Below the pieces are notes generated by a model. That model was not told the DNA's origin. It worked only from the letters and a program-made list of their open reading frames with translations, and ran no database searches. From the NCBI GenBank assembly GCA_041666485.1, contig JBAYGW010000003.1:16415-80414 (forward strand): a DNA stretch of 64,000 nucleotides, written 5' to 3'. The stretch is from Patescibacteria group bacterium. Lineage in GTDB: Bacteria > Patescibacteriota > Patescibacteriia > UM-FILTER-42-10. Of this stretch, positions 6,671 through 46,486 are shown piece by piece. Made by a program: the position numbers and the translations under genes. Numbering within the stretch: position 1 is the stretch's first letter; each line of letters opens with the position of its first letter.

Positions 6671-8161
6671 ATGATTGTTATTATGAAAAGACAATCCGGA
6701 ATATTATTACACATCACATCACTGCCCAGTCCGTATGGCATTGGTGATTTGGGAGAAGAAGCATTTAGATTTATTGATTTCTTAAGCAAGTCCGGACAGA
6801 GTATTTGGCAAATTCTTCCATTAACCATACCGGACTCTATCGGTTCACCATACGCGTCTTCATCTGCGTTTGCCGGAAACTGGCTACTAATTAGTCCTGA
6901 TGAATTATTAAAAGCCGGATTGCTGCACAAAAAGTCACTTCCCAAAACAAAGCGAGTCACAGCGATCAAATATTCAAAAGTATTCCAAGAGCGACGAAAA
7001 CTCGTTGAAAAATCATATGAGTATTTCCGCAAACATGCTTCACGTGAACAGAGTAACAGCTTTAATCATTTTATCCAATATCATTCAAAATGGCTCAACG
7101 ATTTCGGGCTGTTTATGGCGCTTAAAGATCACTTCAAGGGTGCGCGATGGTTTAATTGGCCTGAGGATATTGCCAACAGAGAAGAACAAGCCATCAAATA
7201 CTGGCAAAAAAAACTTGATCGCCAAATAAAAGTATATCAATACGGACAATGGATATTTTTTTCTCAGTATGCGAAAATTAAAAAATACGCGAATAAAAAA
7301 GGTATCCGCATTTTTGGCGATATTCCATTCTTTATTATTCACGACAGTGTAAATGTTTGGGTTGATCGGGATTTGTTTTTGCTGGACGATAAATACCAAC
7401 CCCTGGCCAAATCGGGTGTGCCACCGGATTATTTCAGCAAACGTGGACAGTTGTGGGGTGACCCGCAGTACAACTGGGAAAAAATGAAGAAAAATAATTT
7501 CCGTTGGTTTATCAGAAGAATAAAAAAAGCGGAAAACTTTTATGATGATGTTCGTTTAGACCATTTTAGAGGCTATTCAGCAGTATGGCATGTTGATCCA
7601 AAATCCAAAACATCTAAAAATGGCAAATGGGTCCCTGTACCCGGAATTGAAATCTTCAGAGAAGTAAAAAGCAAATTCAAAAATCTTTCTATCATTGCGG
7701 AAGATCTTGGATATATAACTCACGATGTAGTTGAATTGAAAAGGCATTATAAATTTCCGGGTATGCGCGTAATGCAGTTTGGTTTTAGTGGAAAACAGAA
7801 TAATTTTCATCTACCCACGAATTTTTCAACCGATTGCGTCGCTTATACCGGCACTCATGATAACGACACAACCTATGGCTGGATTACGAAATCCGGTAAA
7901 ACGTCGCAAAAGAAATTTGCGCTAAAATATGCGAAAACTGACAAAAAGCATTTTGCCTGGAAGCTTATTGAAATAGGTATGCGCTCAAGAGCCTGTTGGT
8001 TCGTCTTCCCTATTCAGGACGCTCTAAATCTCGGATCAGAGGCCCGCATGAACAAACCGTCAACCAAAAAGAAAAACTGGCAATGGCGTATGAAAAAAAA
8101 CGCATTATCGGACGAATTGGCAATTAAGATAAACAATCTTACCAGATCTGCCAGAAGATAA
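6671..8161 (+). CDS. malQ: 4-alpha-glucanotransferase (amylomaltase, GH77)
   Basis: SGILLHITSLPSPYGIGDLG signature; length ~496 aa. Confidence 0.9.
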   Translation: MIVIMKRQSGILLHITSLPSPYGIGDLGEEAFRFIDFLSKSGQSIWQILPLTIPDSIGSPYASSSAFAGNWLLISPDELLKAGLLHKKSLPKTKRVTAIKYSKVFQERRKLVEKSYEYFRKHASREQSNSFNHFIQYHSKWLNDFGLFMALKDHFKGARWFNWPEDIANREEQAIKYWQKKLDRQIKVYQYGQWIFFSQYAKIKKYANKKGIRIFGDIPFFIIHDSVNVWVDRDLFLLDDKYQPLAKSGVPPDYFSKRGQLWGDPQYNWEKMKKNNFRWFIRRIKKAENFYDDVRLDHFRGYSAVWHVDPKSKTSKNGKWVPVPGIEIFREVKSKFKNLSIIAEDLGYITHDVVELKRHYKFPGMRVMQFGFSGKQNNFHLPTNFSTDCVAYTGTHDNDTTYGWITKSGKTSQKKFALKYAKTDKKHFAWKLIEIGMRSRACWFVFPIQDALNLGSEARMNKPSTKKKNWQWRMKKNALSDELAIKINNLTRSARR

Positions 8162-9115: not shown

Positions 9116-9814
9116 TTAAATATATTGTTGTGGATCAATCCAATTATTCAGTTCTGCTTCTGTCTGGACATATCCTTTGATATTAATTTCAGTTCCTTTA
9201 TGTATCCCGAAATGCAGATGCTTTCTTTCCCCGTCTGTTTCCGCGCTTTTGTCCGCACCCAGTAACCCTATTATATCCCCTTTTTTGATATTTGATCCAA
9301 CTTCAAATTTTACACTAGCTATCATTAAATGACCGTAAATTACAGTAACTCTCTGACCATTCAAATCACATTCCTGGACAATCACTCCCCCATAACCGCT
9401 TGCGGTAGTTTTCATTCTAAGCGATCCGGTACAAAAAGACTTAACCTCCACATCACTGTTTAGTTCGTCAGCAAATACCTCAAAGTCAGCTCCGGTATGA
9501 TATCCGGAAAATCTCTCCGGCTGTACCGGCGAATTAGTCTTCGTTATTTTAATACCGAATGGTTTTTTTATAATTCTTTCTTTTGGTTGATCCAAAGGAC
9601 TCTGATAACCCTCATTACTTACCTGATTATTTAAATTTTGGTTTAAATCGGCATTTGCAATGTTTGTAATTTCGGAATTTACCAATACACTATTATTTAA
9701 AATTGTACTGTTACCAATGTTCTGGTTTTTCTTAATCTGTAAAAAAACAAACACACCAAAAAATATAAACATTATCAGCAAACCATAGAGAACCCTTTTG
9801 AATCCTTTACCCAT
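9116..9814 (-). CDS. M23 family metallopeptidase (LytM-like), membrane-anchored
   Basis: N-terminal TM; HTGADF…HLHFGIH zinc ligand motifs. Confidence 0.7.
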   Translation of the reverse strand: MGKGFKRVLYGLLIMFIFFGVFVFLQIKKNQNIGNSTILNNSVLVNSEITNIANADLNQNLNNQVSNEGYQSPLDQPKERIIKKPFGIKITKTNSPVQPERFSGYHTGADFEVFADELNSDVEVKSFCTGSLRMKTTASGYGGVIVQECDLNGQRVTVIYGHLMIASVKFEVGSNIKKGDIIGLLGADKSAETDGERKHLHFGIHKGTEINIKGYVQTEAELNNWIDPQQYI

Positions 9815-9841
9815 TATCTTCTTATTAATATATTATTAAGT

Positions 9842-9873
9842 AAAACTCCCACCAAATAAATGGAGGGAGTTTT
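9842..9873 (-). terminator. rho-independent terminator after arsR-like gene
   Basis: AAAACTCCC…GGGAGTTTT 9-bp stem followed by T-run on minus strand. Confidence 0.5.
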
Positions 9874-9956
9874 ATCAATTCGGTTAGCAACCGCAATCAG
9901 GACCTGATGTCATTTTATTTACCTTTCATGTTTGCCTGCTTAAAATACAGGCTTAA

Positions 9957-10307
9957 TTAATGAATATGTTGATCTAAATGATTATCCAGCATTTCAACCT
10001 GTTCTTTGTCACTGATCTCAAGCATATAGCAAACGCACTTGCCCATTTTATACTTAGTTACAATCCGGGAGCGCTCTAGCATACTTAGCTGGTGCGACAC
10101 TGCGCTGATACTGATACCGAGCACAGCAGCGATATCTGAAACACAGATCTCTTCATAATGTTTTAATAACAGCAATATTTTTATCCTGGTCGGATCAGAC
10201 AAAACATTGCATAGATCACTTTGGATTTTTATGTGTTTACCGTTTCTTTTCAGCCAATTCTGATTTTTTAATATTTGCTTTTGCGTTAACATACTACGTT
10301 TTATCAT
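9957..10307 (-). CDS. ArsR/SmtB family transcriptional regulator
   Basis: wHTH segment ISISAVSHQLSMLERSRIV. Confidence 0.7.
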   Translation of the reverse strand: MIKRSMLTQKQILKNQNWLKRNGKHIKIQSDLCNVLSDPTRIKILLLLKHYEEICVSDIAAVLGISISAVSHQLSMLERSRIVTKYKMGKCVCYMLEISDKEQVEMLDNHLDQHIH

Positions 10308-10439
10308 TTGCTCAAGTGTCTTAATGATATAGCAATTTGTTACCGCCTGTCAAGTCGGGTCACAACTCCTCATAAAGCCAATCTTGACAATAACGTACTT
10401 TTGTATTACTTTCTTTGTATGTTGATCTTTGAAACAACG

Positions 10440-10660
10440 ATGTAGGTGGGAGGACCGCCGTACCAAAAAGCAAGCAGTAATGCTACCCGCTGGGTGACAT
10501 TGACTGACGGGATTCGTCTCGTCCGTGGGCAGATGTTGCCCTCTGGGATGCTAAAGTGCGCGTCCTCCCACCCCACTTTCTTCTACAAATTGCTTTGTGC
10601 GGACGCTTAAGTCCGTTTGTGATAGTCACCCCACAACCCGATCCTACAGGGAGGTACGCC
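10440..10660 (+). other. GC-rich highly structured non-coding segment (candidate leader/riboswitch-like RNA) upstream of GC-rich ORF
   Basis: 11-13 bp outer stem GGTGGGAGGAC…GTCCTCCCACC enclosing several short hairpins incl. AGCA-GUAA-UGCU (GNRA loop). Confidence 0.3.
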
Positions 10661-10760
10661 AAATGTACTCGTGGAGTTACGCACGCCACGGGTTCGGTTG
10701 ACCTGCGATCTTCTCCGTCTGAGTAGTCAATGCCCACGACTCAAAATGAGGAGATCTCGC

Positions 10761-11623: not shown

Positions 11624-11959
11624 CTATCTGAAGATTTTAGACAGAAACCAGTTTACAATAGCCAGTACAATACCAAACAGCAATGCCCACCAAAAGCTTG
11701 CTATGGAAAATCCCGGAACAATTAACGCCATCAGCATAACCAATAATGCGTTAATCACCAGCGTAAACAAGCCAAGCGTCAGAATATTGATCGGCAGAGT
11801 AAAAATTACTAAAACAGGTTTGATAAATATATTAATCAGACCCAATACCAACGCCCCGACAAAAGCGACAAAAAAACCATCAACCGCTACGCCCGGTAGC
11901 AGATAGGCTGTGATCAGGATTGCGACCGTTGAAATTAGCCATTTAATAAGGATTTTCAT
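11624..11959 (-). CDS. DUF360 / holin-family-4-like small membrane protein
   Basis: 111 aa, 3-4 TM, LPGVAVDGFFVAFVGALVLGLIN pattern. Confidence 0.5.
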   Translation of the reverse strand: MKILIKWLISTVAILITAYLLPGVAVDGFFVAFVGALVLGLINIFIKPVLVIFTLPINILTLGLFTLVINALLVMLMALIVPGFSIASFWWALLFGIVLAIVNWFLSKIFR

Positions 11960-22907: not shown

Positions 22908-24497
22908 CTAGTGCCAGAACATCCGGCGATCGGTAAAGAGCATCGCGATGCCCAGTTTGTCCGCGGACCTGATTGAATCCTGGTCGCGAATTGAACCGCC
23001 CTGCTGGACGATCGTCTTGACGCCGAACGTGTCCGCCAGGCGCACGCAGTCGTCAAACGGGAAGAAGCTGTCGGACACCAGCACAGCATGGTGCAGATCC
23101 ATATTCTGCGCCTCCATGTTGTTCATGGCCTGCTCCAGAGCAAGCCGTGCCGACTTGATCCGGCTGGTCTGGCCGTTGCCGATGCCGATCGTCTGCCCGT
23201 TCCAGACCACGATGACCGAGTTGGACTTGACGTGCTTTGACACATTGCAGCCGAAACTGATATCCGACCAGTAGCGGTCCTTGACACCGAGCTTGGTGAC
23301 GCACCGGAACGACCTGCAGTCAAACAGCTCGGTGTCCATCAGCTGGACCACCATGCCGCCGGTCACCGGCTTGAAGTTCAGCGTGCCGAACGGCATGCTG
23401 CAGGAAAGCTCCCCACCCAGTTTGAACAGCGGGGTCTCTGCCCTGGCGCGCTTCTTGGTGATGTGTTCCATCGCCTCCGGCGAAAAATCCAGCGCGACGA
23501 TCGCGTCCACCTTCTGCACGCAGATGGTTTCAGCGACTTCCTCCGTCACCTGGAAGTTGAGTACCACCACCCCGCCGAAAGCCGATTCCGGATCGCACGC
23601 CAGTGCGTTCTGGAAAGCCTTCAGCGGACTGAAGCTGTCCATCGCCACTCCGCACGGCGTACCATGCTTGATGATCGCGACTGCGAATTCCGGGGACAGG
23701 TCGCGGACCGTCTCAATGCCGGCATTGATATCCAGCACAGTGGTGGCCGAGAGCGGCTTGCCCCAGATCTGCTTGGCGTTTGCCGCGGTGTAGCAGTTCA
23801 GACCCGGCAGTTCGTAGAACGCACCCGGCTGATGCGGATTCTCACCGTAGCGCAGATCACACTTCTTCTGCAGACGCTGAACCATCCGATCCGGGAAGCT
23901 GGGGAACTCAAGGCGTTCAGCCAGCCAGTCGGAGATCGTGGCGTCATACCACGCAGTGTGAAGAAACGCCTTGTAAGCCAGTTGCAGACGTTCCAGCGCG
24001 TTGAACCCGACATCTTCCGAAAGACACCGAATCACAAAGCCGTACTGCTCTGGTGAAGTGACCACCAGCACATGGCTGTGATTCTTCGCGGCCGCGCGGA
24101 TCAGTGCCACGCCGCCGATATCAATCTGCTCAATCGCGTCCCGAAATGCCACGGTCCGATCAGCCACCGTCTCTTCAAACGGATACAGGTTGACCACGAC
24201 CATGTCAAACGGGTAGATGCTGTGATCAAACAGCTCCTGCATGTGCGCGTCGCTGTCCTGATCCGCCAGGATCCCGCCGTGGATCTTCGGATGCAGAGTC
24301 TTCACCCTGCCACCCAGAATTTCCGGGAAACCGGTCACCTCCTCTACCGTTCGCACGGGAATTCCGGCTTCCACCAGGTGTCTGGACGTTCCGCCGGAAG
24401 ATACAATCTCCCAGCCATGTTCAAACAGCACGGTGGCAAGCTCAACAATGCCGCGCTTGTCGGACACGCTGATCAGAGCGCGCTGATTTGCTCGCAT
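22908..24497 (-). CDS. purH: bifunctional AICAR transformylase / IMP cyclohydrolase
   Basis: ALISVSDKRGIVELA (MGS domain), GGTSRHLVEAGIPV, KTLHPKIHGGIL; AAAGGAG RBS at chosen start; gene conspicuously GC-rich. Confidence 0.9.
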   Translation of the reverse strand: MRANQRALISVSDKRGIVELATVLFEHGWEIVSSGGTSRHLVEAGIPVRTVEEVTGFPEILGGRVKTLHPKIHGGILADQDSDAHMQELFDHSIYPFDMVVVNLYPFEETVADRTVAFRDAIEQIDIGGVALIRAAAKNHSHVLVVTSPEQYGFVIRCLSEDVGFNALERLQLAYKAFLHTAWYDATISDWLAERLEFPSFPDRMVQRLQKKCDLRYGENPHQPGAFYELPGLNCYTAANAKQIWGKPLSATTVLDINAGIETVRDLSPEFAVAIIKHGTPCGVAMDSFSPLKAFQNALACDPESAFGGVVVLNFQVTEEVAETICVQKVDAIVALDFSPEAMEHITKKRARAETPLFKLGGELSCSMPFGTLNFKPVTGGMVVQLMDTELFDCRSFRCVTKLGVKDRYWSDISFGCNVSKHVKSNSVIVVWNGQTIGIGNGQTSRIKSARLALEQAMNNMEAQNMDLHHAVLVSDSFFPFDDCVRLADTFGVKTIVQQGGSIRDQDSIRSADKLGIAMLFTDRRMFWH

Positions 24498-24589
24498 TTC
24501 TGCTCCTTTCGTGGCAAACCGTGAAGCTTTCACCGCAAACAACCGTTTGGGAAACGGTTTTTTAACTTATCACTCCGACTGACGCAAGT

Positions 24590-30001: not shown

Positions 30002-30427
30002 ATGACCAAAGCACAAATCAAGGGACATCAAGTTGTTTGTTCCGCGTTTATAGAAAGAAATAAAAGGTTTTTGATTGTCATGGATCCCAAATTCAAAGTT
30101 TGGCGGGTTCCCGGAGGCAGACCGGAGCACGGTGAAAAGCTTGAAGATACTTTGATACGAGAAATGCAGGAAGAAACAGGTATAACATTTTCCGACCCCA
30201 AATTCATCGGCTTTGGCCAGGATCAGCAGTTTAAAGTGGATGATAAACTGGAAACATCGCGTTTGATTATGTATTTTCATGTGCATACCGACCAGGAACC
30301 GGTGCTTGACCCGAACGAAGCAGAACAGCACAAATGGGTTACGCTTGACGAACTCAAGGAAATAGATTTAGATAACAAGGAAGGGGCGCTTACCGATTTT
30401 TTTAATCGTAATCCGAATTTTAAATAA
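30002..30427 (+). CDS. NUDIX hydrolase
   Basis: Nudix box GGRPEHGEKLEDTLIREMQEETGI. Confidence 0.8.
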   Translation: MTKAQIKGHQVVCSAFIERNKRFLIVMDPKFKVWRVPGGRPEHGEKLEDTLIREMQEETGITFSDPKFIGFGQDQQFKVDDKLETSRLIMYFHVHTDQEPVLDPNEAEQHKWVTLDELKEIDLDNKEGALTDFFNRNPNFK

Positions 30428-30434
30428 AACATTT

Positions 30435-30812
30435 ATGAATGAAAATGTCATAGTCAAAGAGTCAAGTATCAATAATAAAGGCGTTTTTGCCACACGCGAT
30501 TTTAAAAAGGGTGAAGTAGTGCTCCCCTGGCAGACAAATACTATCCTAACCATGGAAGAAGTTAAAAAATTGCCGGCATCAGAAAGAAACTATATCGCCA
30601 ACTATGCGGGGGGTAAATATCTGCATCAACAAGAGCCGGAAAGATATGTTAACCACTCCTGCGATCCGAATACAGAAACTGGTGATGATTGTGACGTAGC
30701 GATCAGAGATATTAAATCTGGTGAAGAAATTACTTCCGATTATTCCAAGGCAAAGTTTAATATGCACTTTGTATGCAACTGCGGGAGTAAAAATTGCCGC
30801 AAGTATATTTAA
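30435..30812 (+). CDS. SET-domain protein-lysine methyltransferase
   Basis: GVFATRDFKKGEVV, RYVNHSCDPNTE, GEEITSDY, post-SET CNCGSKNCR. Confidence 0.75.
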   Translation: MNENVIVKESSINNKGVFATRDFKKGEVVLPWQTNTILTMEEVKKLPASERNYIANYAGGKYLHQQEPERYVNHSCDPNTETGDDCDVAIRDIKSGEEITSDYSKAKFNMHFVCNCGSKNCRKYI

Positions 30813-30838
30813 GTATATATACTTTAAATGATTGAATC

Positions 30839-31297
30839 ATGTCGGATCAACGAAAAGTAATCCCGGGAGTACATCTCATTTTCCAAAAATATAATAATGA
30901 CATCGGCGAGAACGAGTATCTGCTCCACAAGCGCATGAATACCAACTTTTTTGACAAACACTTTTCCGTTCCCGGCGGGCATATTGATGATTATGAAACC
31001 CCTACCGACTGCGTGGTACGCGAAGGAAAAGAAGAACTTGGTGTGGATATTGATCCAAAATACATAAAATTTGCTAATGTACTTTACAGGATTAAAAAAT
31101 CCGATCATGAAGTGCGCATTGACTTTTGCTACATCATTACCAAATGGAAAGGCATATTGAAGGCCAATGAACAGCATAAACACTCTGAGCCGGCCTGGTA
31201 TCCACTCAGCAAATTCCCTACACCCGTAGTTCCTTATGTATTGCAGGCAATACAAGATATTGAAAGTGGAATTGCATACACAAAGACAGATATTTAG
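30839..31297 (+). CDS. NUDIX hydrolase
   Basis: PGGHIDDYETPTDCVVREGKEELGV. Confidence 0.75.
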   Translation: MSDQRKVIPGVHLIFQKYNNDIGENEYLLHKRMNTNFFDKHFSVPGGHIDDYETPTDCVVREGKEELGVDIDPKYIKFANVLYRIKKSDHEVRIDFCYIITKWKGILKANEQHKHSEPAWYPLSKFPTPVVPYVLQAIQDIESGIAYTKTDI

Positions 31298-31351
31298 TGG
31301 GGAATAAGAATCATAATAATAACCTGGGTGCAAGAATTTAATTCAATATAA

Positions 31352-31789
31352 ATGTTTACAATCGGAACATTCGGCATAATCAAAGATGAAAATGAACGGG
31401 TATTACTCTGTCACCGCCGGGATTATGATTTTTGGAATCTGCCTGGAGGCGGAGTAAAAGAAAATGAAACTCCCTGGGACGCTGTAATTCGGGAAATAAG
31501 GGAAGAAACGGGACTGGAAGCTCGGATCACTCACCTCTCGGGCGTGTACAGCAAGCCGGATAAAAATGAAATTGTGTTTTCTTTTGTTTGCGAAATAGCG
31601 GGCGGGGAAACTACTTTAACTGACGAGGCGGACAAAATAGCATATTTTGAAGTTGACCAGATTCCTAAAAATACTTCCCCGAAACAAGTGGAACGGATCA
31701 AAGATTATTTTGCTGATCCATCCAAAACCCACTACAAGGCGCAAACCGGCGCGTCATCAATTGATCTGATCAAAGCGGGAAGACTTTAA
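31352..31789 (+). CDS. NUDIX hydrolase
   Basis: LPGGGVKENETPWDAVIREIREETGLE. Confidence 0.8.
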   Translation: MFTIGTFGIIKDENERVLLCHRRDYDFWNLPGGGVKENETPWDAVIREIREETGLEARITHLSGVYSKPDKNEIVFSFVCEIAGGETTLTDEADKIAYFEVDQIPKNTSPKQVERIKDYFADPSKTHYKAQTGASSIDLIKAGRL

Positions 31790-34912: not shown

Positions 34913-36415
34913 TTAGGTAATTGTAAAAATATTGATTTTTTCAATCGCTTTCTTTGCCAGTTCAATTCTTTCCCTGCGATTCGCGTAAAAAGTGAACAGT
35001 TTACTACCCTTTTTAACTTCCTGTCCAACCCTTTTGTGGAGGTAAATGCCGGCCAATTTTTCTGAAGGCGCACCTAGTGTTCTCGCAATTTCGTCAATTG
35101 CTTTATTATCTACTGCGGTTATTTTACCTGACTTTGCGGAAAGTACACGGTAATACTCACCGCCTAAGACCACTGCGTCGGAATCAATTGTAGAATTACC
35201 ACCCTGTTCCTTGATCACCACCTGCATTTTTTTCCACGCCTTACCTGATACCAGAATTTCTTCCGCAACTGATTTTCCCTTACCGCGCGCCACCTGCCCC
35301 GATATTTCCAGAAGTTTTCCCGCCAAAACCAGTGCTTTATCTTCTAAATCTTTCGGCCTGTTACTTTTTTGCTGCAATACCCGGAGAACATCGCGTGATT
35401 CCAAGGCCGGTCCAACCCCTCTGCCGACCGGTTCATTGGCAAAAATTTTTTCAACATGTATTTTAATCCCAAAACGCTTGCCAAGATACATAAACTTTTT
35501 TTCAATCTCATTCGCGGTCTTCATATCCGGAATTTTTGAGGTGATTCCGACCGGCATATCAATCACCAGATACTTGATACCCATGGCAACTTTTTTCGCC
35601 ATAATACTTACCACCATTTTATCAAACGGTTCCAAGGAGAGTGGTTTTGTCACCTGAATAATCAAATCATCCGCCGGAGCAATATTTAAACCACCGCCCC
35701 AGATCATACATACTTTGTTTTTCATCACCATTTGTTTGATTCTGGTCATGGAAAATCCGACCGGAGCCAATACTTCCATAGTATCCGCCGTACCCGACGG
35801 TGAAGTGATCGCCCGGGAGGAGGTTTTTGGAATATATAAACCAAAGGCTGCAACAATCGGAACAACAATCATAGTTGTCCTATTGCCGGCCAAACCGCCG
35901 ACGGAATGTTTATCAACTACAATTTTATTTCCGGAAAATCTCAACTGCTCGCCGGTTTCCGCAATTGATTTTGTAAGATAATACAGCTCCAGTGGAGTAT
36001 AAGGCCTTGCAAAACTAGACGCGACAAAATATGATGTTTCCACCGGTCCGAGTCTGCGGCTGACAATATCTGCTATGATTGAATGAATTTCCTCATAACT
36101 TAAAACACCGCCCTTAATTTTCTTATTAATTGCTTTTACTGATTCCGGACGTTCAACGATTGAAACCTCAATGATTTGATCTTTCTTCATCGGGTACTTC
36201 GCCCAGATCTCTTCAAAAAAACCGATCTCCCCCGGCTTTATTTCATTTTCCGCCAGGTTTACAGTAGCAAATATTCTTTTACGGTTATGCCAGGACAAAC
36301 CGATATGGTCATTAGCATGAATACCAAAATTGAGGGCTTCTTTTTCATTTAAAAGCACCTTCGGCATCTCGCCGGTTTCAATATCAATTTTTTTTGCCCT
36401 TAAATAAAATGCCAT
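34913..36415 (-). CDS. AMP phosphorylase (thymidine-phosphorylase family, archaeal DeoA-type)
   Basis: Near full-length similarity to Thermococcus AMPpase incl. HSVGGLAGNRTTMIVVPIVAA, PKTSSRAITSPSGTADTMEV. Confidence 0.85.
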   Translation of the reverse strand: MAFYLRAKKIDIETGEMPKVLLNEKEALNFGIHANDHIGLSWHNRKRIFATVNLAENEIKPGEIGFFEEIWAKYPMKKDQIIEVSIVERPESVKAINKKIKGGVLSYEEIHSIIADIVSRRLGPVETSYFVASSFARPYTPLELYYLTKSIAETGEQLRFSGNKIVVDKHSVGGLAGNRTTMIVVPIVAAFGLYIPKTSSRAITSPSGTADTMEVLAPVGFSMTRIKQMVMKNKVCMIWGGGLNIAPADDLIIQVTKPLSLEPFDKMVVSIMAKKVAMGIKYLVIDMPVGITSKIPDMKTANEIEKKFMYLGKRFGIKIHVEKIFANEPVGRGVGPALESRDVLRVLQQKSNRPKDLEDKALVLAGKLLEISGQVARGKGKSVAEEILVSGKAWKKMQVVIKEQGGNSTIDSDAVVLGGEYYRVLSAKSGKITAVDNKAIDEIARTLGAPSEKLAGIYLHKRVGQEVKKGSKLFTFYANRRERIELAKKAIEKINIFTIT

Positions 36416-36480
36416 GATTAGTAATTCGTAATTAGCAATTGGTAATTAGTAATTAGCAACGTGTAATTCGCTGTATAATG
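36416..36480 (-). promoter_or_regulatory. tandem AATTAC-repeat array in leader of AMP phosphorylase gene
   Basis: cgAATTACacgttgctAATTACtAATTACcaattgctAATTACgAATTACtaatcATG (read toward gene); near-identical array before guaB. Confidence 0.35.
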
Positions 36481-36516
36481 CCGTATGTACAGGTCTGATA
36501 TTAAGATGTAAAAAAA

Positions 36517-37800
36517 TTACTTATCCCCATCCTTCCAATGTCTGAGCGCAACGGCTAACTCTCCGTGGTCTTTGGCATACTCATCCAGATCAATCCCCGC
36601 AAGCGTCGCGTCTAATGCCTGTTTAACGGCTGTCGCTCCGGCAAATGTTCCTTCCGGATGACCATGGATACCCCCGCCAAAATTCAGAATTACATCTTTG
36701 CCGAATATTTTATAAAGCGAAGGTATTAAATTGGGATACAACCCGCCTGATGCGATCGGGAATGTTGATTTAATATTAAACCACTTACTGCGCAGAAAAT
36801 CATCTATTTCAACTACATCACTTTTTCCACCCTCCATTTTCCCCACAACCGTGCCGGTGTGCAGCTGATCAATACCTGCCAGACGCGCCAATTTTGACAG
36901 CACTAGCATACTCATTCCATGTTTTTGGTTCTTAGTGAACATAGAATGCCCAGCTCTGTGACCGTGAATTATAAGACCTAAATCCCGTTTGCGTAACATT
37001 TGCACATTATCAAGTCCTACGGAAACCATGTCAATCATTACCACTTCACCGCCGAGGCTTTTGACCAGCTGCGCTCTTTTGATCATTTCATCCGGTTGTG
37101 CTGTTACATTAAACACGCACAATTTTTTGCAGCCTGTTTCTTTTTCCGCTTTATCCCTCATTTTAAGAGTAAGCCGGACTCGCTGATCAAATCGGCTGAA
37201 AGAAAGGTCGGTTAAATTTTCATCATCTTTGACCAGATCAATTCCACCGATAAAGACCTGGTAAGACAGTGTGGCATGCTGCAGAGCGGACAAGCCCAGC
37301 TTTGGTTTCAGAATTGATCCCAGTATGGGCCGGTCATAAATTCCCATAATGCGCCTGATCCCTTTTATGCCGAAACGCGGGCCCTGAAAACTTTCAACAT
37401 ATTCTTTCGGAAAGTCTACATCCACTAATCTGAGATTCCTTATGATCTTCATACTAAAAACATTACCCGCCACACCGGATAAAAATTGCGGGATGCTCCC
37501 CTTTTCAAAAAGCGCCAAGGGATAGGCAACTTTGAATGTATGGGCTTTTTTATCAATATCATATGCTTTCGCGCTCAGCTTCGTGAATGTTGCTTTGGAT
37601 AATGTGGCAAGATCCGTCCAGGTTCCAATAGAAGATTCCGCCGCCACTCCGCCCGCCGCATCGTTAAAATCAACATTGGTATCCATATAGAATGAAGCGA
37701 CAAGTTCTGTTTTCTTCGGCTGATAGCTTTTTTTTACAAATTTTTGGTAAAATTTATTCATATTATAGATTCTTGAAAATCCATGGATAATGCTTTTCAA
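36517..37800 (-). CDS. rbcL: ribulose-1,5-bisphosphate carboxylase large subunit, form II/III
   Basis: KPKLG carbamylation site, GGIDLVKDDEN, IHGHRAGHSMF, GGGIHGHP; alternative start at 37761. Confidence 0.88.
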   Translation of the reverse strand: MKSIIHGFSRIYNMNKFYQKFVKKSYQPKKTELVASFYMDTNVDFNDAAGGVAAESSIGTWTDLATLSKATFTKLSAKAYDIDKKAHTFKVAYPLALFEKGSIPQFLSGVAGNVFSMKIIRNLRLVDVDFPKEYVESFQGPRFGIKGIRRIMGIYDRPILGSILKPKLGLSALQHATLSYQVFIGGIDLVKDDENLTDLSFSRFDQRVRLTLKMRDKAEKETGCKKLCVFNVTAQPDEMIKRAQLVKSLGGEVVMIDMVSVGLDNVQMLRKRDLGLIIHGHRAGHSMFTKNQKHGMSMLVLSKLARLAGIDQLHTGTVVGKMEGGKSDVVEIDDFLRSKWFNIKSTFPIASGGLYPNLIPSLYKIFGKDVILNFGGGIHGHPEGTFAGATAVKQALDATLAGIDLDEYAKDHGELAVALRHWKDGDK

Positions 37801-38719
37801 CTAAATAAGCAACATCACGTGGCTTAATAATACCAAATTCACAAATTATTCCTTTGATGAATTTAGATGGAATGCGGTCAAAAGCGAAATTGATTATTTT
37901 TAATCCTTTCGGACCGTTCGGCCAGATTTCTTTGCGATCCCGCAATTCAATGCCAACATATTTGCTGATAAATGTTTCCGGATCGGTTTTTAAAAGTGAA
38001 GCGGCGACATAAACCGGAATTTTTTCGTGGTTAGCAACCTGGGCGATTCCGTAGCTACCGACTTTGTTGATCACTGAGCCGCCGGATGTAACCGAGTCTG
38101 CACCCAAAAAAGCAATATCCACCATCACTTCCCGGCCACTGGTTCTGCTGATCAGAAAAGCGGCAGCTGAATCAGCCACCATTGTGACGTCAATCTTTCG
38201 CTTTAATAGATTCTTAGCTGTTATTCGCCCCTGGAAAAGCGGGCGGGTTTCTGTACAAAAAACATGCGGCATCTTTGAATGTTTATTAGCCTCAGTAATA
38301 ATATGCTCCACAGTTGAAGAATGGCAGTGCGTGAATACTTTCATATCTTGCTTAATCAGTTTTGCGCCGGCTACGGCAATTTTTTGATCATGATATTTCA
38401 GCAAAACTAAAAAAAGATGGCAAGCTTTTTTTAGCAACTTCGCCAACTCAGGCACGGATAAACCTTCTTTATTATTCTCTAAATAATGTAAAACGAATTG
38501 GACTGAATTACGGGACAGCGGTTCGGTCGGCCTTGCTTCCGCCAAGGCTTTGCCACTTTTACGAATAGCAGAAAGAAACTGGCTTTTATTTTTTTTTAGC
38601 AATTGATTACTTTCCAACTGCAACGCGTCCAAAATTACTTTGGTTATCTGCGTTGCACCCTGTATTTCTAAAGATGCTATTTTTGTTACTGTTTTTTGTA
38701 CTGCGCTATTCATAAACAC
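37763..38719 (-). CDS. ribose-1,5-bisphosphate isomerase (eIF-2B alpha/beta/delta family)
   Basis: e2b2-family core …VTMVADSAAAFL…FLGADSVTSGGSVINKVGSYG. Confidence 0.72.
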   Translation of the reverse strand: MFMNSAVQKTVTKIASLEIQGATQITKVILDALQLESNQLLKKNKSQFLSAIRKSGKALAEARPTEPLSRNSVQFVLHYLENNKEGLSVPELAKLLKKACHLFLVLLKYHDQKIAVAGAKLIKQDMKVFTHCHSSTVEHIITEANKHSKMPHVFCTETRPLFQGRITAKNLLKRKIDVTMVADSAAAFLISRTSGREVMVDIAFLGADSVTSGGSVINKVGSYGIAQVANHEKIPVYVAASLLKTDPETFISKYVGIELRDRKEIWPNGPKGLKIINFAFDRIPSKFIKGIICEFGIIKPRDVAYLVEKHYPWIFKNL

Positions 38720-38734
38720 AGTATACCATTTATA

Positions 38735-40558
38735 TCATTCCCATTCAATCGTCCCTGGCGGCTTGTTGGTGAAATCAAAAACAATCAAATCTATTTGTTT
38801 TATTCTTTTTAAGCGTCCGACAACCTGGTCAATAAAAGATCGGGACAACGGGAAATACTTGACCGTCATTGCTTCCTCCGATTGCACGGGGCGCAAAATT
38901 ACTGTGTAGCCGCCCGCAATGGAATATGGGGCCAGGATTACGGGAAATTGCCAGATTTTAGAATCCAGTCGGGCTTTTTTCATTTCAGACTGTACTATGT
39001 CGTCAATATTCTGCAGTAGAGCCACGTTTTTTTTCGTCAGCAGAAGTTTAATATTTTTTCCTCCGCTAATATCTTTTTTCCTGCTAAAAATCACCCAGCA
39101 CACCCGATTTACATTTTGAATCTGATTTGCCACGAGCGGACCGAGCTTTTGCATTTGAATAGTATTCATTTCTCCGGAGAAAACCGCGGGATGGGCGTAA
39201 GTCCGTTCATCGCCCTGAACGCCCACACTTCTGACCGGTAGTACCCAGCCTTTAATATCTGATTTGTTCTCATAATTGAACTGCGAGATTATTATATCCA
39301 AATCGGCATTTTCTTTCTTTACATTTACATGCACCTTATTTCCCCGGGAACAAATTATACGGATTGCCAACCCCGGACCGGGAAATGGATGACGATTGAT
39401 AATTTCTCCAGGCAAGCCGATCTGCTTGCCGAGCTGCCGTACTTCGTCTTTGTACAAGTCTTTCAAAGGCTCAATGACCAACCCGCGTTTTATTAATTCC
39501 AAAACTTCTTTTACCCGATTATGGTGTGTTTTTATTTTATCGGCGTGCTTCGTCCCGCCCGATTCAATTGTATCCGGATAAATAGTCCCCTGCGCCAGAA
39601 TCCATTCCTTTGGATTCAGTTTGAATTTCTTCATCGCAATTCTTTGAACATCCAGATACGTCCTGCCGATAATCTCGCGTTTGCGTTCCGGACTGATAAT
39701 ACCTTTTAACCTCTTATAGAATAGTACGGAAGCATCCATTACTTCCAGATTGGTAAACCCTAGTTTATTGAAACGTTTTTTTATTTCCTCTGATTCATTT
39801 TTTCTCATGAACCCCAGATCAATATGCAGACCAAACACCTTTTCTTTGCCCAAGATCCGATTCAGTAACCCGAAACATACGGCAGAATCAACTCCGCCGG
39901 AAACCAGCAAAAATACCTTGCGACTTCCTACTTTCCTAACTATCTCTTTTTCAATATCAGTTAAGTAATGTTTAATATCCCATTCCTTTTTAGCGCCGCA
40001 GATACTGAAAACAAAGTTATTAATTAATTCCATTCCACGTTCTGTATGTGATACTTCGGGGTGAAACTGGACTCCGTATATTTTCATTATGCTGTTTCCC
40101 ATCGCTGCTACCGGGCAATCAGCAGTCTTTGCCATGACTTTAAATCCCTTCGGCACATTTAATACAAGATCACCATGACTCATCCAAACCTGTTCGTTTG
40201 CACCAAATTTCCTGAACAGCTTGCCGGGTTCAATTACTGACAGGTTGGCAAAACCATATTCTCTCACATCACCCCTGACTACTTTTCCGCCCATTAGATA
40301 GGTGATCAGTTGGTGACCATAGCAAACACCTAGGATTGGTACGCCGCTTTTCAGTATTCTCCGGTCAAATTTTATTTTCCCGTCATAAACGCTGTTTGGT
40401 CCGCCGGACAGGATTATTCCCCAGGACGACCTTAATTCTTCAAGTGGCGTTTCGGGATTGTAAATATTAGCTAAAACACCAAGTTGCCGGATTCTGCGTG
40501 CAATCAGGTGGGTATATTGTGAACCAAAATCCAGAATTGTTATGTGTTTTTGTTTCAT
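38735..40558 (-). CDS. guaA: GMP synthase (glutamine-hydrolysing)
   Basis: GATase ILDFGSQYTHLIARRIR, PP-loop SGGVDSAV, C-terminal …IEWE; 607 aa (longer than usual). Confidence 0.9.
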   Translation of the reverse strand: MKQKHITILDFGSQYTHLIARRIRQLGVLANIYNPETPLEELRSSWGIILSGGPNSVYDGKIKFDRRILKSGVPILGVCYGHQLITYLMGGKVVRGDVREYGFANLSVIEPGKLFRKFGANEQVWMSHGDLVLNVPKGFKVMAKTADCPVAAMGNSIMKIYGVQFHPEVSHTERGMELINNFVFSICGAKKEWDIKHYLTDIEKEIVRKVGSRKVFLLVSGGVDSAVCFGLLNRILGKEKVFGLHIDLGFMRKNESEEIKKRFNKLGFTNLEVMDASVLFYKRLKGIISPERKREIIGRTYLDVQRIAMKKFKLNPKEWILAQGTIYPDTIESGGTKHADKIKTHHNRVKEVLELIKRGLVIEPLKDLYKDEVRQLGKQIGLPGEIINRHPFPGPGLAIRIICSRGNKVHVNVKKENADLDIIISQFNYENKSDIKGWVLPVRSVGVQGDERTYAHPAVFSGEMNTIQMQKLGPLVANQIQNVNRVCWVIFSRKKDISGGKNIKLLLTKKNVALLQNIDDIVQSEMKKARLDSKIWQFPVILAPYSIAGGYTVILRPVQSEEAMTVKYFPLSRSFIDQVVGRLKRIKQIDLIVFDFTNKPPGTIEWE

Positions 40559-40644
40559 ACTTGTCTTTATTGTAAAATATACTTACAATTAAAACAACAT
40601 TTTAACCCTAATCCCTTGTCCCTACTACCTAACTTCGCATATTA

Positions 40645-40705
40645 CCAGGTAGAGATTACGAATTACCAAATTGCCAATTACTAATTACTAGTTCCTAAAC
40701 CCTAA
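40645..40705 (+). promoter_or_regulatory. tandem AATTAC-repeat array in guaA/guaB divergent region, immediately before guaB
   Basis: gagATTACgAATTACcaaattgccAATTACtAATTACtag…ATG. Confidence 0.35.
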
Positions 40706-40711
40706 AAAAAT

Positions 40712-42187
40712 ATGTTTACCCAGTTTGAAGAAACATTAACATTTGATGATGTATTGTTAGTTCCGCAAAAGTCATCAATTCTTCCGAATGAAACCGAGAT
40801 TAAAACCAGGCTGACACGCAGGATAAATTTAAATATTCCATTAATCTCATCCCCGATGGACACTGTAACCGAACACCGGCTGGCGATCGCCCTGGCACTG
40901 CACGGCGGAATCGGGATAATTCATAAAAATATGCCTGCCGACAAACAGGCGCAGGAAGTAAGTTTTGTAAAAAGATTTGAAAACGGCTTTATTGAAAATC
41001 CTGCCACACTGCAGCCGGAAGATCCGATTGATGACGCGGCGGAAATTAGAGACAAAAAAGGATACAAAAAAATTCCGATTGTTGATAAAAACAACAAGCT
41101 GGTGGGAATGATTACCGAGCAGGATTATTTCGTGCCCGACGATTTGAAACTGCCGATAAAATTTAAAATGAAACGTTTGAATGAAATTGTGGTCGCTAAG
41201 CACGGCATCACCCTCCAACAAGCAAATAAAATTATTAGGGAGAAAAAGCTCACCGCATTGCCGATCGTTAATAAGCAGGGAAAACTGGTTAGTATGGTTA
41301 CCAGAAAAGATTTGGAAAAAAACGAGCAGCACCCCAATGCCTGCAAGGATGATAAAAAACAACTGCGGGTCGGTGCCGCTATTTCCGTCGGCCCGGAAGC
41401 TCTGGAACGCGCCAAATATTTGGTTGCCGCCGGAGTAGATGTATTGGTCGTTGATACCGCTCACGGCCATACTAAGGGCGTATTGGATACGGTAAGAGCG
41501 CTGAAAAAAAATAAATTGTTTTCTAATATTGATATCATCGCCGGGAATGTCGCAACAGAAGAAGGAACCAGAGATCTGATCAGGGCTGGTGCGGACGCTG
41601 TAAAGGTAGGGGTCGGGCCGGGATCAATCTGTACCACCAGAGTAATTGCGGGGATCGGTGTACCACAAATCAGCGCGATTCTGGCGGCGGTAAAAGGCCG
41701 GGGTAAATCCAATATTCCCATTATTGCTGACGGCGGTATCCGATACTCAGGCGATATAGTAAAAGCACTTGGTGCTAAAGCGGATTCCGTAATGATCGGC
41801 AGTCTTTTTGCCGGTTGTGAAGAAACACCAGGTGAAATAGAGTATGAAGGTGGCAAAATGTATAAATCCTACCGCGGGATGGGTTCAAAAGAAGCCATGA
41901 TCCACGGATCCAAAGACCGTTACGGACAGGGAGAGCAAAAAGACAGTGAAAAACTGGTGCCGGAAGGTGTATCAGCCAGGGTTATTTATAAAGGGCTGGT
42001 TTCAAGACACATATATCAGTTGATCGGCGGGATTAGATCCGGTATGGGTTATATCGGCTCTAAAACAATTTCGGAGTTGCACAGGAAAGCAAGATTTATT
42101 AAAATCAGCTCTGCGGGACTGCGAGAAAGTCATCCACATGATGTAACAATTACAAAACAGCCGCCAAATTATCATTCGGAAAAATAA
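40712..42187 (+). CDS. guaB: IMP dehydrogenase
   Basis: [13 protein letters not shown] pair, [11 protein letters not shown] catalytic loop. Confidence 0.92.
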
Positions 42188-42231
42188 TAAACAAAAGACG
42201 GATTTCACATCCGTCTTTTTAATTCGCTCTA

Positions 42232-43737
42232 TTAAATTCTTTTTCTCAACTTCATGTGCGCCTGTTGCAACTGCGTCAAAAGACTCGTTTCGTTGATAAA
42301 ATTATGCTTACGATTAGAAATAACAAAATTCCCGTTAATCATCAGATCCCTGATATTTCTACCCCCATACGTAATCATATTACTGACCAATGTCTTCGGG
42401 TCATTTGAATTGTACGGTAAGAATCCGCGATCCTGCAGTTTCCAGAACGCGATATCCGCCCGATATCCCGGCAGTATTTTGCCGACTTTTGGCAATCCCA
42501 ACAGTTTCGCACCTTGTGCAGTAATCATATTGAATAAATCACTATAGGGAACGATTTTTTTGTTTTGATGCATCGTTTTAGTCTGTAGCGCTTCCGTAAG
42601 CAAATCCAGCCTGTTTTTACTGACCACGCTGTCCGTTCCCAAGGCAATCTGTTTGGTTGCTTTAATCTTATGAAATAACGGATAATCAAACTGACCGCTA
42701 CGGTGCAGAAGATTGGATGTCGGCAGATGCACAACCCCGACCCTTCTTTTCTGAATTAATTCTACATCTTCCCTGCCCACATGCACGACATGCGACATCA
42801 TGGTCCTGGGATTTAATAGTCCAAACCGATCCAATACTTTCACCGGATGTTCTCCAAATTTTTTCATTGACTTCTCCAATGACTCCTTAGTTTCCGCGAC
42901 ATGGATCGTAAACAATGCATTATACTTTTTCTGAAGCAATCTAACTTTTTTAAAAATTGCCGGCGATGCCTTGTGCGGTTCATGGATCGCAATTGCGGGC
43001 TCCGTATGATATTTTGCTTTATTCTTCAGATATCTTTCAACCATTGCCGGAGTATTTTCCGGATGCGAGTTGCTCACCGCACTGACAGCATTAATCACTT
43101 CATGACCGGTTAGTTTTCCCGCATCGTCAATCGGTTCAAACACTCCATAGTGGCTAAGCGTTGTTGATATGCCGAACTTTTGTTGTTCAGTAAAATCCCC
43201 TACTGCCCCCAGAAAAAAATCGTCCTCAGTCATTTTCCCTTCTAACCTTGCCATACCTTTCAGTGTCTTTTCTAAATTCGCTTCGGAAAATGTTAATGTG
43301 GATCTGAGTAGATACATCGGGGGATGTGCGTGTGCATTAACTAACCCGGGGGTAACAACTATTCCACCGCCGAGCTCGGCATCATAAATTAGGTCAATCT
43401 CGGTTAAATCAACAAAAGATAATTCAGTTGCTTTTAATACTTTTACTATCACTCCATCCTCAATCAGAATTGATCGTCCGGATACAACCTCTAATTTTTC
43501 ATTCTCATTGATGGTAATTAAAAAGGGAATTCCGTGAATTAGAATTTTTCTCGGATTCCCTTCGCGCAACAAAGTATACCTGTTTTTCCCTTTCTGGCCA
43601 GCAGCAAAATTAATATCTTTCTGCCGATATTCAATCTCGCTTTTAAGTTCGGAAAACTCGTTTCTCATTTGCTTGATATTATAACAGGATTTGCTTTTTT
43701 GCCCAAATTGCGTGAGCTGCGACCATTTCATCCTCAT
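42232..43737 (-). CDS. amidohydrolase (MtaD/SsnA/guanine-deaminase-like nucleobase/nucleoside deaminase)
   Basis: PGLVNAHAHPPMYLLR metal-binding HxH region. Confidence 0.62.
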   Translation of the reverse strand: MRMKWSQLTQFGQKSKSCYNIKQMRNEFSELKSEIEYRQKDINFAAGQKGKNRYTLLREGNPRKILIHGIPFLITINENEKLEVVSGRSILIEDGVIVKVLKATELSFVDLTEIDLIYDAELGGGIVVTPGLVNAHAHPPMYLLRSTLTFSEANLEKTLKGMARLEGKMTEDDFFLGAVGDFTEQQKFGISTTLSHYGVFEPIDDAGKLTGHEVINAVSAVSNSHPENTPAMVERYLKNKAKYHTEPAIAIHEPHKASPAIFKKVRLLQKKYNALFTIHVAETKESLEKSMKKFGEHPVKVLDRFGLLNPRTMMSHVVHVGREDVELIQKRRVGVVHLPTSNLLHRSGQFDYPLFHKIKATKQIALGTDSVVSKNRLDLLTEALQTKTMHQNKKIVPYSDLFNMITAQGAKLLGLPKVGKILPGYRADIAFWKLQDRGFLPYNSNDPKTLVSNMITYGGRNIRDLMINGNFVISNRKHNFINETSLLTQLQQAHMKLRKRI

Positions 43738-45364: not shown

Positions 45365-46486
45365 ATGATTAAAGCCATCATATTTGATTTCGGGAACGTT
45401 ATAGCCAGTTTTGACAATGGTTTATTTTTGAAAAAAATTTCCAAATATACCAGTAAATCTATTGACAAGTTGTATGAACTAATCTATAAAAAATCAAAAC
45501 TGCCAAGCCAATACGAACAGGGAAAAATTAACTCCGATGAATTTTACAACCAAGTTGTAAAACTATGTGATCTGAAAATCAGTCAGATACAATTTAGAGA
45601 CGCCTATACTCAGATATTCACACCGATTCCGGAAACAATTGAGCTGATTAATGCACTTAAGCCAAATTATAAGCTGGGGCTTTTATCCAGCACCAGCGAG
45701 TGGGATTTTGAATTTGGATTCAAACCGCTAATTGATGTGTCTATTTTTGATTCAATTACATTAACCTATCAGCTAGGAATTAAAAAACCGGATCCGAAAT
45801 TATTTCACGATGCTTTAAATAAACTGAGTGTTGCCCCAAACGAAACTGCCTATATTGATGATCTCCCGGAAACAATTGAAGTAGCCAATAATCTGGGTAT
45901 TCATGGAATATTATTTACCGGTAATGACACCCTGCAAGCATCACTGCATAAACTGGGGGTTGAAGTTAATAATACCTACCGCCCGAATTATGTGCAAAAA
46001 GTTACGATAGCTGACGAGAATGACAAAAAAATTGGATACAAATACCGGGATCAAATCACAGAGACAGATATTTTTCGGGCGACCGGCTTGTGGATTACCA
46101 ATTCAAAAGGCGAAATACTTTTAGCCCGAAGAGCACTGTCAAAAAAAATGCATCCGGGATTATGGAGTACCGCCGTTGCCGGAACAGTTGAAGAAGATGA
46201 AACATACGAACAAAATGTAATCAAAGAAGCTGAAGAGGAACTTGGTATCGTTGGCGAAACTTTTATTCCGTATGAAAAAACCAGAATCCGAGGAAAACAC
46301 AATTTCTTCATCCAATGGTACACTTTAGTCATAAATAAAAAAGCTGAGGAATTCATGTTGCAACCAGAGGAAGTGGTTGAAGTAAAATGGTTCAAAAAAT
46401 CCGAGCTAAAATTGTTGCTGAAAGAAAAACCGGAAATATTTACGTCTTCGCTGCCTCAGTGGGTATCTTTATTCCTGGCGAAATAG
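45365..46486 (+). CDS. HAD-superfamily hydrolase fused to C-terminal NUDIX domain
   Basis: HAD motif I IIFDFGNVI, motif IV YIDD; Nudix box GTVEEDETYEQNVIKEAEEELGI. Confidence 0.7.
   Translation: MIKAIIFDFGNVIASFDNGLFLKKISKYTSKSIDKLYELIYKKSKLPSQYEQGKINSDEFYNQVVKLCDLKISQIQFRDAYTQIFTPIPETIELINALKPNYKLGLLSSTSEWDFEFGFKPLIDVSIFDSITLTYQLGIKKPDPKLFHDALNKLSVAPNETAYIDDLPETIEVANNLGIHGILFTGNDTLQASLHKLGVEVNNTYRPNYVQKVTIADENDKKIGYKYRDQITETDIFRATGLWITNSKGEILLARRALSKKMHPGLWSTAVAGTVEEDETYEQNVIKEAEEELGIVGETFIPYEKTRIRGKHNFFIQWYTLVINKKAEEFMLQPEEVVEVKWFKKSELKLLLKEKPEIFTSSLPQWVSLFLAK

Follow-up and report, generated by a model that had tools for sequence, protein, structure and literature searches.

Heptamer repeat arrays before guaB and AMP phosphorylase in a Patescibacterium, a fast-evolving case of widespread bacterial intergenic repeats

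Heptamers are the most abundant tandem repeats, and the commonest periodic DNA, of prokaryotic intergenic regions; they have no clear function, and what they do is an acknowledged question (PMC6344855). One account attributes their over-representation to polymerase slippage, with slippage favouring 7-nt units as a purely mutational cause (PMC4692102). One described case is that of the TAACTGA repeats of Beggiatoaceae, Cyanobacteria and Bacteroidetes, which lie mostly in forward orientation a few nucleotides upstream of starts without a Shine-Dalgarno (SD) motif and are missing from close relatives with equal gene order, and for which S1, Csp (cold-shock) or CsrA-like proteins have been proposed as readers (MacGregor 2015, PMC4679880). 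In Nostoc, heptamer repeats near the start codons of recF and recO have been suggested to modulate expression (bioRxiv 10.1101/2022.06.06.494920). A similar sequence is known from a plant virus, since the omega leader of TMV ends in CAUUAC-AAUUAC-UAUUUAC-AAUUAC-A-AUG (PMC9502800); according to a source that cites Tzareva 1994 (PMC13577412), omega supports SD-independent translation by E. coli ribosomes via S1.

The array analysed here precedes guaB in a window of 64 kb, by which we mean the whole stretch of DNA under analysis (contig record ENA ERZ27249449 k141_142440). The best protein relatives of this contig are Patescibacteria, those with names being Candidatus Kerfeldbacteria, and these protein matches assign the contig to a Kerfeldbacteria-like Patescibacterium. 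A cyanobacterial origin or HIP1 context was rejected, given these same matches and the presence of GCGATCGC only twice in the window, without enrichment. The array shares with the STRR/heptamer class (cyanobacterial STRR; PMC4679880, PMC4692102, PMC6344855) a 7-nt unit in 5-8 tandem intergenic copies, a forward orientation a few nucleotides from an SD-less start, shorter and repeat-free spacers in the closest relatives, and the occurrence of AATTAC-unit arrays in Nostocales, Bacteroidota, Acidobacteriota and others. It departs from that class in its host, a Patescibacterium (CPR), and in its imperfect units, with a variable seventh base and one AATTGC unit; moreover, whereas Beggiatoaceae and Nostoc carry dozens to hundreds of dispersed sets, the window has two copies along its 64 kb, which fall in a single purine-salvage cluster. 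Taken together, the array displays every testable defining feature of the heptamer-repeat class and fails to behave as a riboswitch, a conserved operator, an attenuator or a MITE. It is a fast-evolving member of the widespread bacterial intergenic heptamer repeats, in this case from the CPR. Our literature search by repeat sequence returned only irrelevant matches, and no published report of heptamer repeats in CPR was found; the locus adds a CPR example from a very compact, SD-poor genome.

Anatomy of the two arrays

Both arrays lie within a purine-salvage island (34913-43731), in which AMP phosphorylase (AMPpase; 34913..36415, − strand), type III RuBisCO (36517-37761, −) and ribose-1,5-bisphosphate (R15P) isomerase (37763-38713, −), the archaeal AMP pathway, are co-directional behind guaA (GMP synthase; 38735..40558, −; NF000848, 541 bits), the first gene of the guaA/R15P isomerase/RuBisCO/AMPpase string. 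This string is divergent from guaB (IMP dehydrogenase; 40712..42187, +; TIGR01302, 582 bits), and the island is flanked by a guanine/adenosine-deaminase-like amidohydrolase, an order that is kept in Kerfeldbacteria-like relatives. The gene calls made by an earlier sequence-only reading, with the array before the IMP dehydrogenase gene and the GMP synthase gene divergent from it, were right. The guaA product has 607 aa, about 90 aa over the 512-position GMP synthase model, which it matches in two stretches; this suggests an insertion in its C-terminal half, and the relatives have an equally long product.

The sequence at 40654-40711 (+) reads GATTAC G AATTAC CA AATTGC C AATTAC T AATTAC T AGTTCC T AAACCC T AAAAAA AT, followed by the guaB ATG at 40712. 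Five clear (N)AATTAC units on the guaB sense strand make up its first part (40654-40688), and a degenerate continuation in the same 7-nt phase, TAGTTCC TAAACCC TAAAAAA AT (40689..40711, +), fills the remainder up to the start codon. This continuation is free of G and contains no SD motif, and its CCTAAACCC..AAT part is also present in the relatives L002 and L340. Tandem Repeats Finder reported a period of 7 with 6.1 copies at 40655-40698. Matches to AATTACNAATTAC with at most one mismatch numbered seven in the 64-kb window against 0.85 expected, a count reached in none of 100 shuffles, and all seven were confined to the guaB and AMPpase array sites. Self-similarity scans from lag 7 to lag 12 detected no further array in the 64 kb, leaving two in total. 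Hence, the guaB array is confirmed as a real feature, placed before the ATG as the earlier reading had proposed; the distance of about 8-60 nt that it gave does not hold at its near end, since 23 nt separate the last perfect unit from the ATG. Likewise, the tract cctaaaccctaaaaaaat, which had been called pyrimidine-rich, is in fact G-free and A/C-rich. A weak second heptamer phase, NCCCTNN repeated four times, occurs upstream of the array at 40606-40633, and CCTAAACCCTAAA at 40694-40709, before the guaB ATG, amounts to two plant-telomere-like CCCTAAA units, which are also found in L002.

The twin array (36416..36470, −) precedes AMPpase and reads, on the sense strand of that gene, GAATTAC ACGTTGC TAATTAC TAATTAC CAATTGC TAATTAC GAATTAC TAATC, with the ATG following directly. 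Here Tandem Repeats Finder gave a period of 7 (5.7 copies) together with a higher-order period of 21 at 36417-36470. The array is part of the spacer of 101 nt (36416..36516, −) that separates the RuBisCO stop codon from the AMPpase start; a single inverse GTAATT unit comes after that stop codon. A consensus scan of this spacer found neither a promoter-like nor a terminator-like site; a weak promoter candidate, TTAATA-18-CATTAT, was seen by eye only. Both arrays are composed of head-to-tail 7-nt units in at least three copies, in non-coding DNA between confirmed genes, and each stands on the sense strand of its own downstream gene, so that the two lie on opposite chromosome strands, 4.2 kb apart.

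Aligned with each other, the two arrays have in common a core of 36 nt in which 31 positions are identical and one gap occurs, the AATTGC variant unit occupying an equal position in both, which bears out the earlier claim that the element at 40645-40705 is a second copy of the repeat at 36416-36480. The likeness ends with the core, since the flanks gave a local score of 13 against 14.3 ± 2.4 for shuffles (p=0.75); the arrays are therefore copies of each other only within the repeat. A larger mobile element common to both copies was rejected on the strength of these unrelated flanks, and a MITE was likewise not supported, there being no terminal repeats, no target duplications and no similarity beyond the 36-nt core.

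Promoters and leader RNA

A sigma-70-like promoter for guaB, TTGTCT-17-TACAAT (40561..40589, +), was predicted by consensus scan and is conserved in L002, L004, L008, L339, L340 and L342. On the opposite strand, a putative guaA promoter, TTGTTT-17-TACAAT (40569..40597, −), falls below the scan threshold and was read from the sequence and from its conservation in relatives. The two promoters overlap, and the pair is the part of the intergenic region that is conserved in all relatives. With 10 nt between the end of its −10 box and its ATG, guaA would have a nearly leaderless transcript. The −10 box of guaB is followed after 65 nt by the guaB array, which would therefore lie within a guaB leader of about 115 nt (about +58 to +93) rather than between the promoters; we infer that it is transcribed as leader RNA from the conserved promoter. 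The earlier suggestion that the array may regulate both genes is not supported, because an element of the guaB leader RNA, some 57 nt upstream of the guaA −35 box, is unlikely to control guaA.

On their sense strands the two leaders contain 7-10% G, against 18.5% for the window, and no ATG or GTG; in the guaB and the AMPpase leader alike, every one of the three reading frames has a stop codon no more than 33 nt from the start. Neither leader showed a significant RNA fold (z +1.25 and +0.09 against shuffles), and a scan of both leaders found no terminator or attenuator. An attenuator was therefore rejected, with neither a terminator-like site nor a stable alternative structure to form one. Rfam models gave no match for the leaders at gathering or permissive thresholds, the best E-values being 0.8-7 and belonging to snoRNA models. 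With no covariance-model match and no significant fold, the leaders do not qualify as a riboswitch or any curated cis-regulatory RNA.

The leaders combine AAUUAC-type repeats, a G-poor unstructured sequence and an SD-less start, the features of an omega-like leader. As in TMV omega, AAUUAC-type repeats stand directly before the start in a G-poor, unstructured leader (PMC9502800); unlike the array, omega belongs to a plant-virus RNA and has as its main enhancer motif a poly(CAA) tract, which is missing here. The resemblance of the array to a leader driving SD-independent translation in bacteria may be taken as a lead at the level of sequence. As to the translational context, an SD-like motif precedes 8 of the 64 genes of the window, and in many genes the ATG is preceded at 5-12 nt by a TATAAT- or TACAAT-like box, a proximity that suggests many leaderless or very short-leader mRNAs. 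Neither an S1 gene nor a 16S 3′ end was found within the 64-kb window.

Turnover among relatives and occurrence across bacteria

Comparison with relatives of the locus offers a clean contrast of identical genes with and without the repeat. In the window, with arrays at both sites, the RuBisCO-AMPpase spacer has 101 nt and the guaA-guaB intergenic region 153 nt. The closest relatives (86-96% protein identity) lack both window arrays, with guaA-guaB regions of 57-73 nt and RuBisCO-AMPpase spacers of 4-53 nt. L004 and L008 (AMPpase 88-90%) have a spacer of only 4-5 nt, a guaA-guaB region of 57 nt and no arrays; L002 (AMPpase 93%) has 53 and 73 nt, respectively, and no array at guaB, its AMPpase leader containing three GTAAT units that face one AAATTAC in a small GTAATTTGT/ACAAATTAC stem; L339 (guaB 86%) has 59 nt between guaA and guaB and no array there. 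About 80 nt of the window (40618..40694, +), comprising the array and the weak NCCCTNN phase, are missing from L002, the boundaries being approximate because the alignment was made by eye. The absence from the closest relatives and their minimal spacers argue that the window arrays are recent additions of about 80-100 nt. In L008, the 90% relative, a side feature of the same neighbourhood is an rve-family integrase (IS element) at 9788-10723, directly 3′ of AMP phosphorylase, which breaks an otherwise conserved gene order.

More distant relatives carry arrays of another kind. In L342, L343 and L336 (73%), with a spacer of about 110 nt and 209 nt between guaA and guaB, the spacer contains an inverted heptamer pair (CAATTNN four times, AATTGNN five times), of which the guaA leader has a homologous copy of about 100 nt; in L342 the two elements lie at 3640-3752 and 7792-7900. 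Both the guaA and the guaB leader of L340 and L341 (guaB 74%; guaA-guaB 230-254 nt) contain inverted pairs of 8-nt arrays (TATTGTTK, ATTAGCTT, TAAAAAGC); those of L340 lie at 2687-2916, and its two hairpins are unlike each other. The inverted pairs of L342, L343, L336 and L340 fold into long AU-rich hairpins (−20 to −30 kcal/mol, z −3.3 to −6); in the AMPpase, guaA and guaB leaders these stop 6-16 nt short of the ATG. The most distant relatives, L344 and L345 (guaB 64-66%), have 56 and 155 nt between guaA and guaB and no arrays. Conservation of the array at orthologous loci was consequently rejected: the nearest relatives have none, those at 73-74% have different arrays and the most distant again have none. 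With absence in L004, L008 and L339 and a different array in L002, L342 and L340, the pattern is one of rapid turnover. Within species, no copy-number polymorphism was seen in the relatives' arrays, which are identical across independent assemblies from different samples; the species of the window is represented by a single contig.

In the clade loci, 6 of 15 gaps that lead into AMPpase, guaA or guaB have an array, compared with 3 of the 139 remaining gaps (Fisher p 2e-5, with no correction for phylogeny); when only gaps of at least 50 nt are counted, the figures are 6 of 12 purine-cluster leaders and 3 of 88 others, again uncorrected for shared ancestry. Arrays are not exclusive to the purine cluster, as L339 has three tandem arrays elsewhere (1704-1790, 4631-4673 and 11629-11668), one of them an inverted pair of heptamer arrays located between dnaG and a gene for desulfoferrodoxin, the other two 8-nt arrays. 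The idea of a purine-linked element, advanced before this analysis, keeps a statistical association with these leaders, but its extension to a purine-responsive operator acting on both guaA and guaB is not supported. Such an element is absent from L002, L004, L008 and L339; elsewhere its units differ in sequence and in length (7 or 8 nt), and its architecture differs as well; within the window, no array occurs upstream of purH (AICAR transformylase/IMP cyclohydrolase; 22908-24542, −); and neither an Rfam match nor a significant structure was obtained, and arrays stand before unrelated genes in many phyla. Purine riboswitches and PurR/PurBox operators likewise stand upstream of guaB/guaA-type genes; unlike them, the array has no Rfam match, no conserved fold, no dyad overlapping a promoter and no conservation across orthologous promoters. 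A purine-regulon operator is not supported, the motif not being conserved at orthologous genes and the site neither overlapping nor adjoining the promoter hexamers. For annotation purposes, the array is neither a purine riboswitch nor an operator, and gives no basis for inferring a regulon. The purH gene itself sits in a locally GC-rich stretch (~0.51 against 0.40).

AATTAC-type heptamer arrays occur at 200 or more loci overall, in many phyla and before unrelated genes. Four consecutive AATTRC heptamers were found at 120 loci or more in species-representative genomes, which among the matches listed belong mostly to Nostocales and other Cyanobacteria, Bacteroidota, Acidobacteriota, Planctomycetota and Chloroflexota, and the mixed pattern AATTACC-AATTGC-AATTAC-AATTAC at 86 metagenome loci, many on high-GC contigs. 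Composition-matched four-unit controls (TTAARC, ATATRC and TAATRC) had 86, 71 and 94 viral loci, respectively, against at least 120 for AATTRC; since they are almost equally common, AATTAC is one case of a generic phenomenon. A special, lineage-restricted status of the AATTAC unit was accordingly rejected, given its presence in many phyla and the near-equal frequency of permuted controls in viral contigs. Orientation was counted for arrays whose end lay no more than 20 nt before the start (ATG or GTG) of an ORF with 100 codons or more, among the 221 arrays in the matches listed. Forward (AATTAC-sense) arrays numbered 45 and reverse ones 13 (binomial p 3e-5); in these matches the split was 23 against 1 in the metagenome set and 22 against 12 (p 0.12) in the genome set, so the forward bias is significant only in the former. 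An inverted partner array lay within 120 nt in 41 of the 221 arrays among the matches listed. Many high-GC (55-66%) soil-type contigs (L249-L334, for instance L304, L317, L251, L277 and L298) carry a GTAATT array, a spacer of 20-45 nt and an AATTAC array directly before the start codon, an inverted-pair arrangement that makes a recurrent hairpin architecture.

Origin and possible effect of the arrays

Our preferred explanation, tentative and a little short of an even chance, is that slippage and copying between sites made the arrays, and that these, transcribed in a leader and a spacer, provide a G-poor, SD-free open region that supports or tunes SD-independent initiation, perhaps as the TMV omega leader does, and uncouples AMPpase from RuBisCO. 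An STRR-type heptamer repeat would have been born by replication slippage in non-coding leader DNA, probably together with local copying from one site to the other over a distance of 4.2 kb. The guaB array would then be transcribed in the guaB 5′ leader and its twin in the RuBisCO-to-AMPpase intercistronic spacer, each adding about 80-100 nt of G-poor, ATG/GTG-free, unstructured RNA directly before an SD-less start. In this SD-poor genome, such a leader would most plausibly act in cis, as an open stretch on which ribosomes could land or stand by before initiating without an SD sequence, probably via ribosomal protein S1, and the array before AMPpase could in addition uncouple AMPpase translation from that of RuBisCO, replacing translational coupling. 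Both the slippage origin and any effect of the array on translation are matters that we infer. The gradual passage of the phase through TAATTAC, TAGTTCC, TAAACCC and TAAAAAA into the ancestral leader is as expected for slippage in situ. Independent slippage leaves the equal unit order at both sites and the enrichment at these leaders unexplained, so that copying or selection must be added. Any effect of the array must also be dispensable, since relatives do without it, and rapid copy-number tuning is not observed, the arrays being identical across independent assemblies of the same species. Furthermore, the structured hairpins in the leaders of the 73-74% relatives are the opposite of an open leader, and no single cis mechanism fits the whole clade.

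The serious alternative, if a somewhat unlikely one, is neutrality, with the arrays as selectively irrelevant slippage products at those few sites between genes where a compact genome can accommodate additional DNA, and with no effect on expression. Absence from the closest relatives, a lack of conservation of array sequence, unit length and architecture within the clade and the commonness everywhere of heptamer arrays of many sequences all agree with it, as does the purely mutational cause proposed in PMC4692102, slippage favouring 7-nt units. The forward bias by start codons (45 against 13 among the matches listed) is not expected of neutral repeats at the DNA level, and neutrality also has to accommodate the forward orientation of both window copies despite their opposite chromosome strands, the concentration at purine-cluster leaders (6/15 against 3/139 gaps) and the identity of arrays across independent samples. 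That concentration would be explained, together with the clustering and the likeness of arrays within a genome, by a repeat-reading regulator, the strongest form of the idea in the earlier sequence-only reading. It would be a protein of the kind of TRAP or HutP, which are oligomeric RNA-binding proteins, and would bind the spaced AATTAC units in the mRNA leader or in DNA and co-regulate AMP salvage (AMPpase) and GMP synthesis (guaB) by nucleotide status. TRAP targets consist of spaced GAG/UAG triplets and HutP targets of UAG with 4-nt spacers, the latter in a 7-nt register. The array has this same 7-nt register, and it shares with such targets a short motif at regular spacing in the leader of a metabolic gene, which would fit a ring-shaped protein; in the same direction point the position of the sole two arrays of the 64 kb before two purine-metabolism genes of one cluster, in equal strand sense and unit order, and the homologous ~100-nt element shared by the AMPpase and guaA leaders of L342. 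Unlike TRAP/HutP targets, however, the array has no terminator or antiterminator partner and no sequestered ribosome-binding site, abuts the start codon and is not conserved in relatives, where those sharing the cluster show AATTACN, CAATTNN, ATTAGCTT, TAAAAAGC, TATTGTTK or none and where the two hairpins of L340 differ even from each other. As purH is without an array, no candidate regulator gene adjoins the cluster and arrays of identical type precede unrelated genes in many phyla, we regard such a regulator as unlikely.

A broader version of shared control is quite unlikely in our estimate. It supposes, in Kerfeldbacteria-like CPR, a small cis-regulon made up of the leaders of AMPpase (behind RuBisCO), guaA and guaB, with fast-evolving arrays that would be kept alike within a genome and diverge between genomes. 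Their reader would be either a repeat-binding factor co-evolving with them or, directly, the machinery of SD-independent initiation, and AMP breakdown and GMP synthesis would in this way be co-tuned in organisms that depend on scavenged nucleotides. The hairpins of L342, L343, L336 and L340, formed by inverted arrays in the corresponding leaders, suggest yet another origin, in which the window array is the decayed half of a leader hairpin: of an ancestral inverted pair making an AU-rich stem-loop before the start, only the proximal arm would have survived and expanded in the window genome. That element could have affected mRNA stability, served as a translational or thermosensor-type gate, or been a miniature mobile element. 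The small stem at the AMPpase leader of L002, the single inverse GTAATT unit after the window RuBisCO stop and the inverted partners within 120 nt of 41 of the 221 arrays elsewhere, among the matches listed, are in keeping with this origin. We consider it very unlikely nonetheless, for the window leaders have neither a partner arm nor significant structure, the flanks of the two copies are unrelated and bear no terminal repeats or target duplications, and the window arrays are homologous to the L342 elements only in the AATT-containing unit. Outside the purine-salvage island, the window has a cluster of three NUDIX hydrolase genes, interrupted by a SET-domain gene (30002-31789), and a further HAD-NUDIX fusion at 45365-46486.
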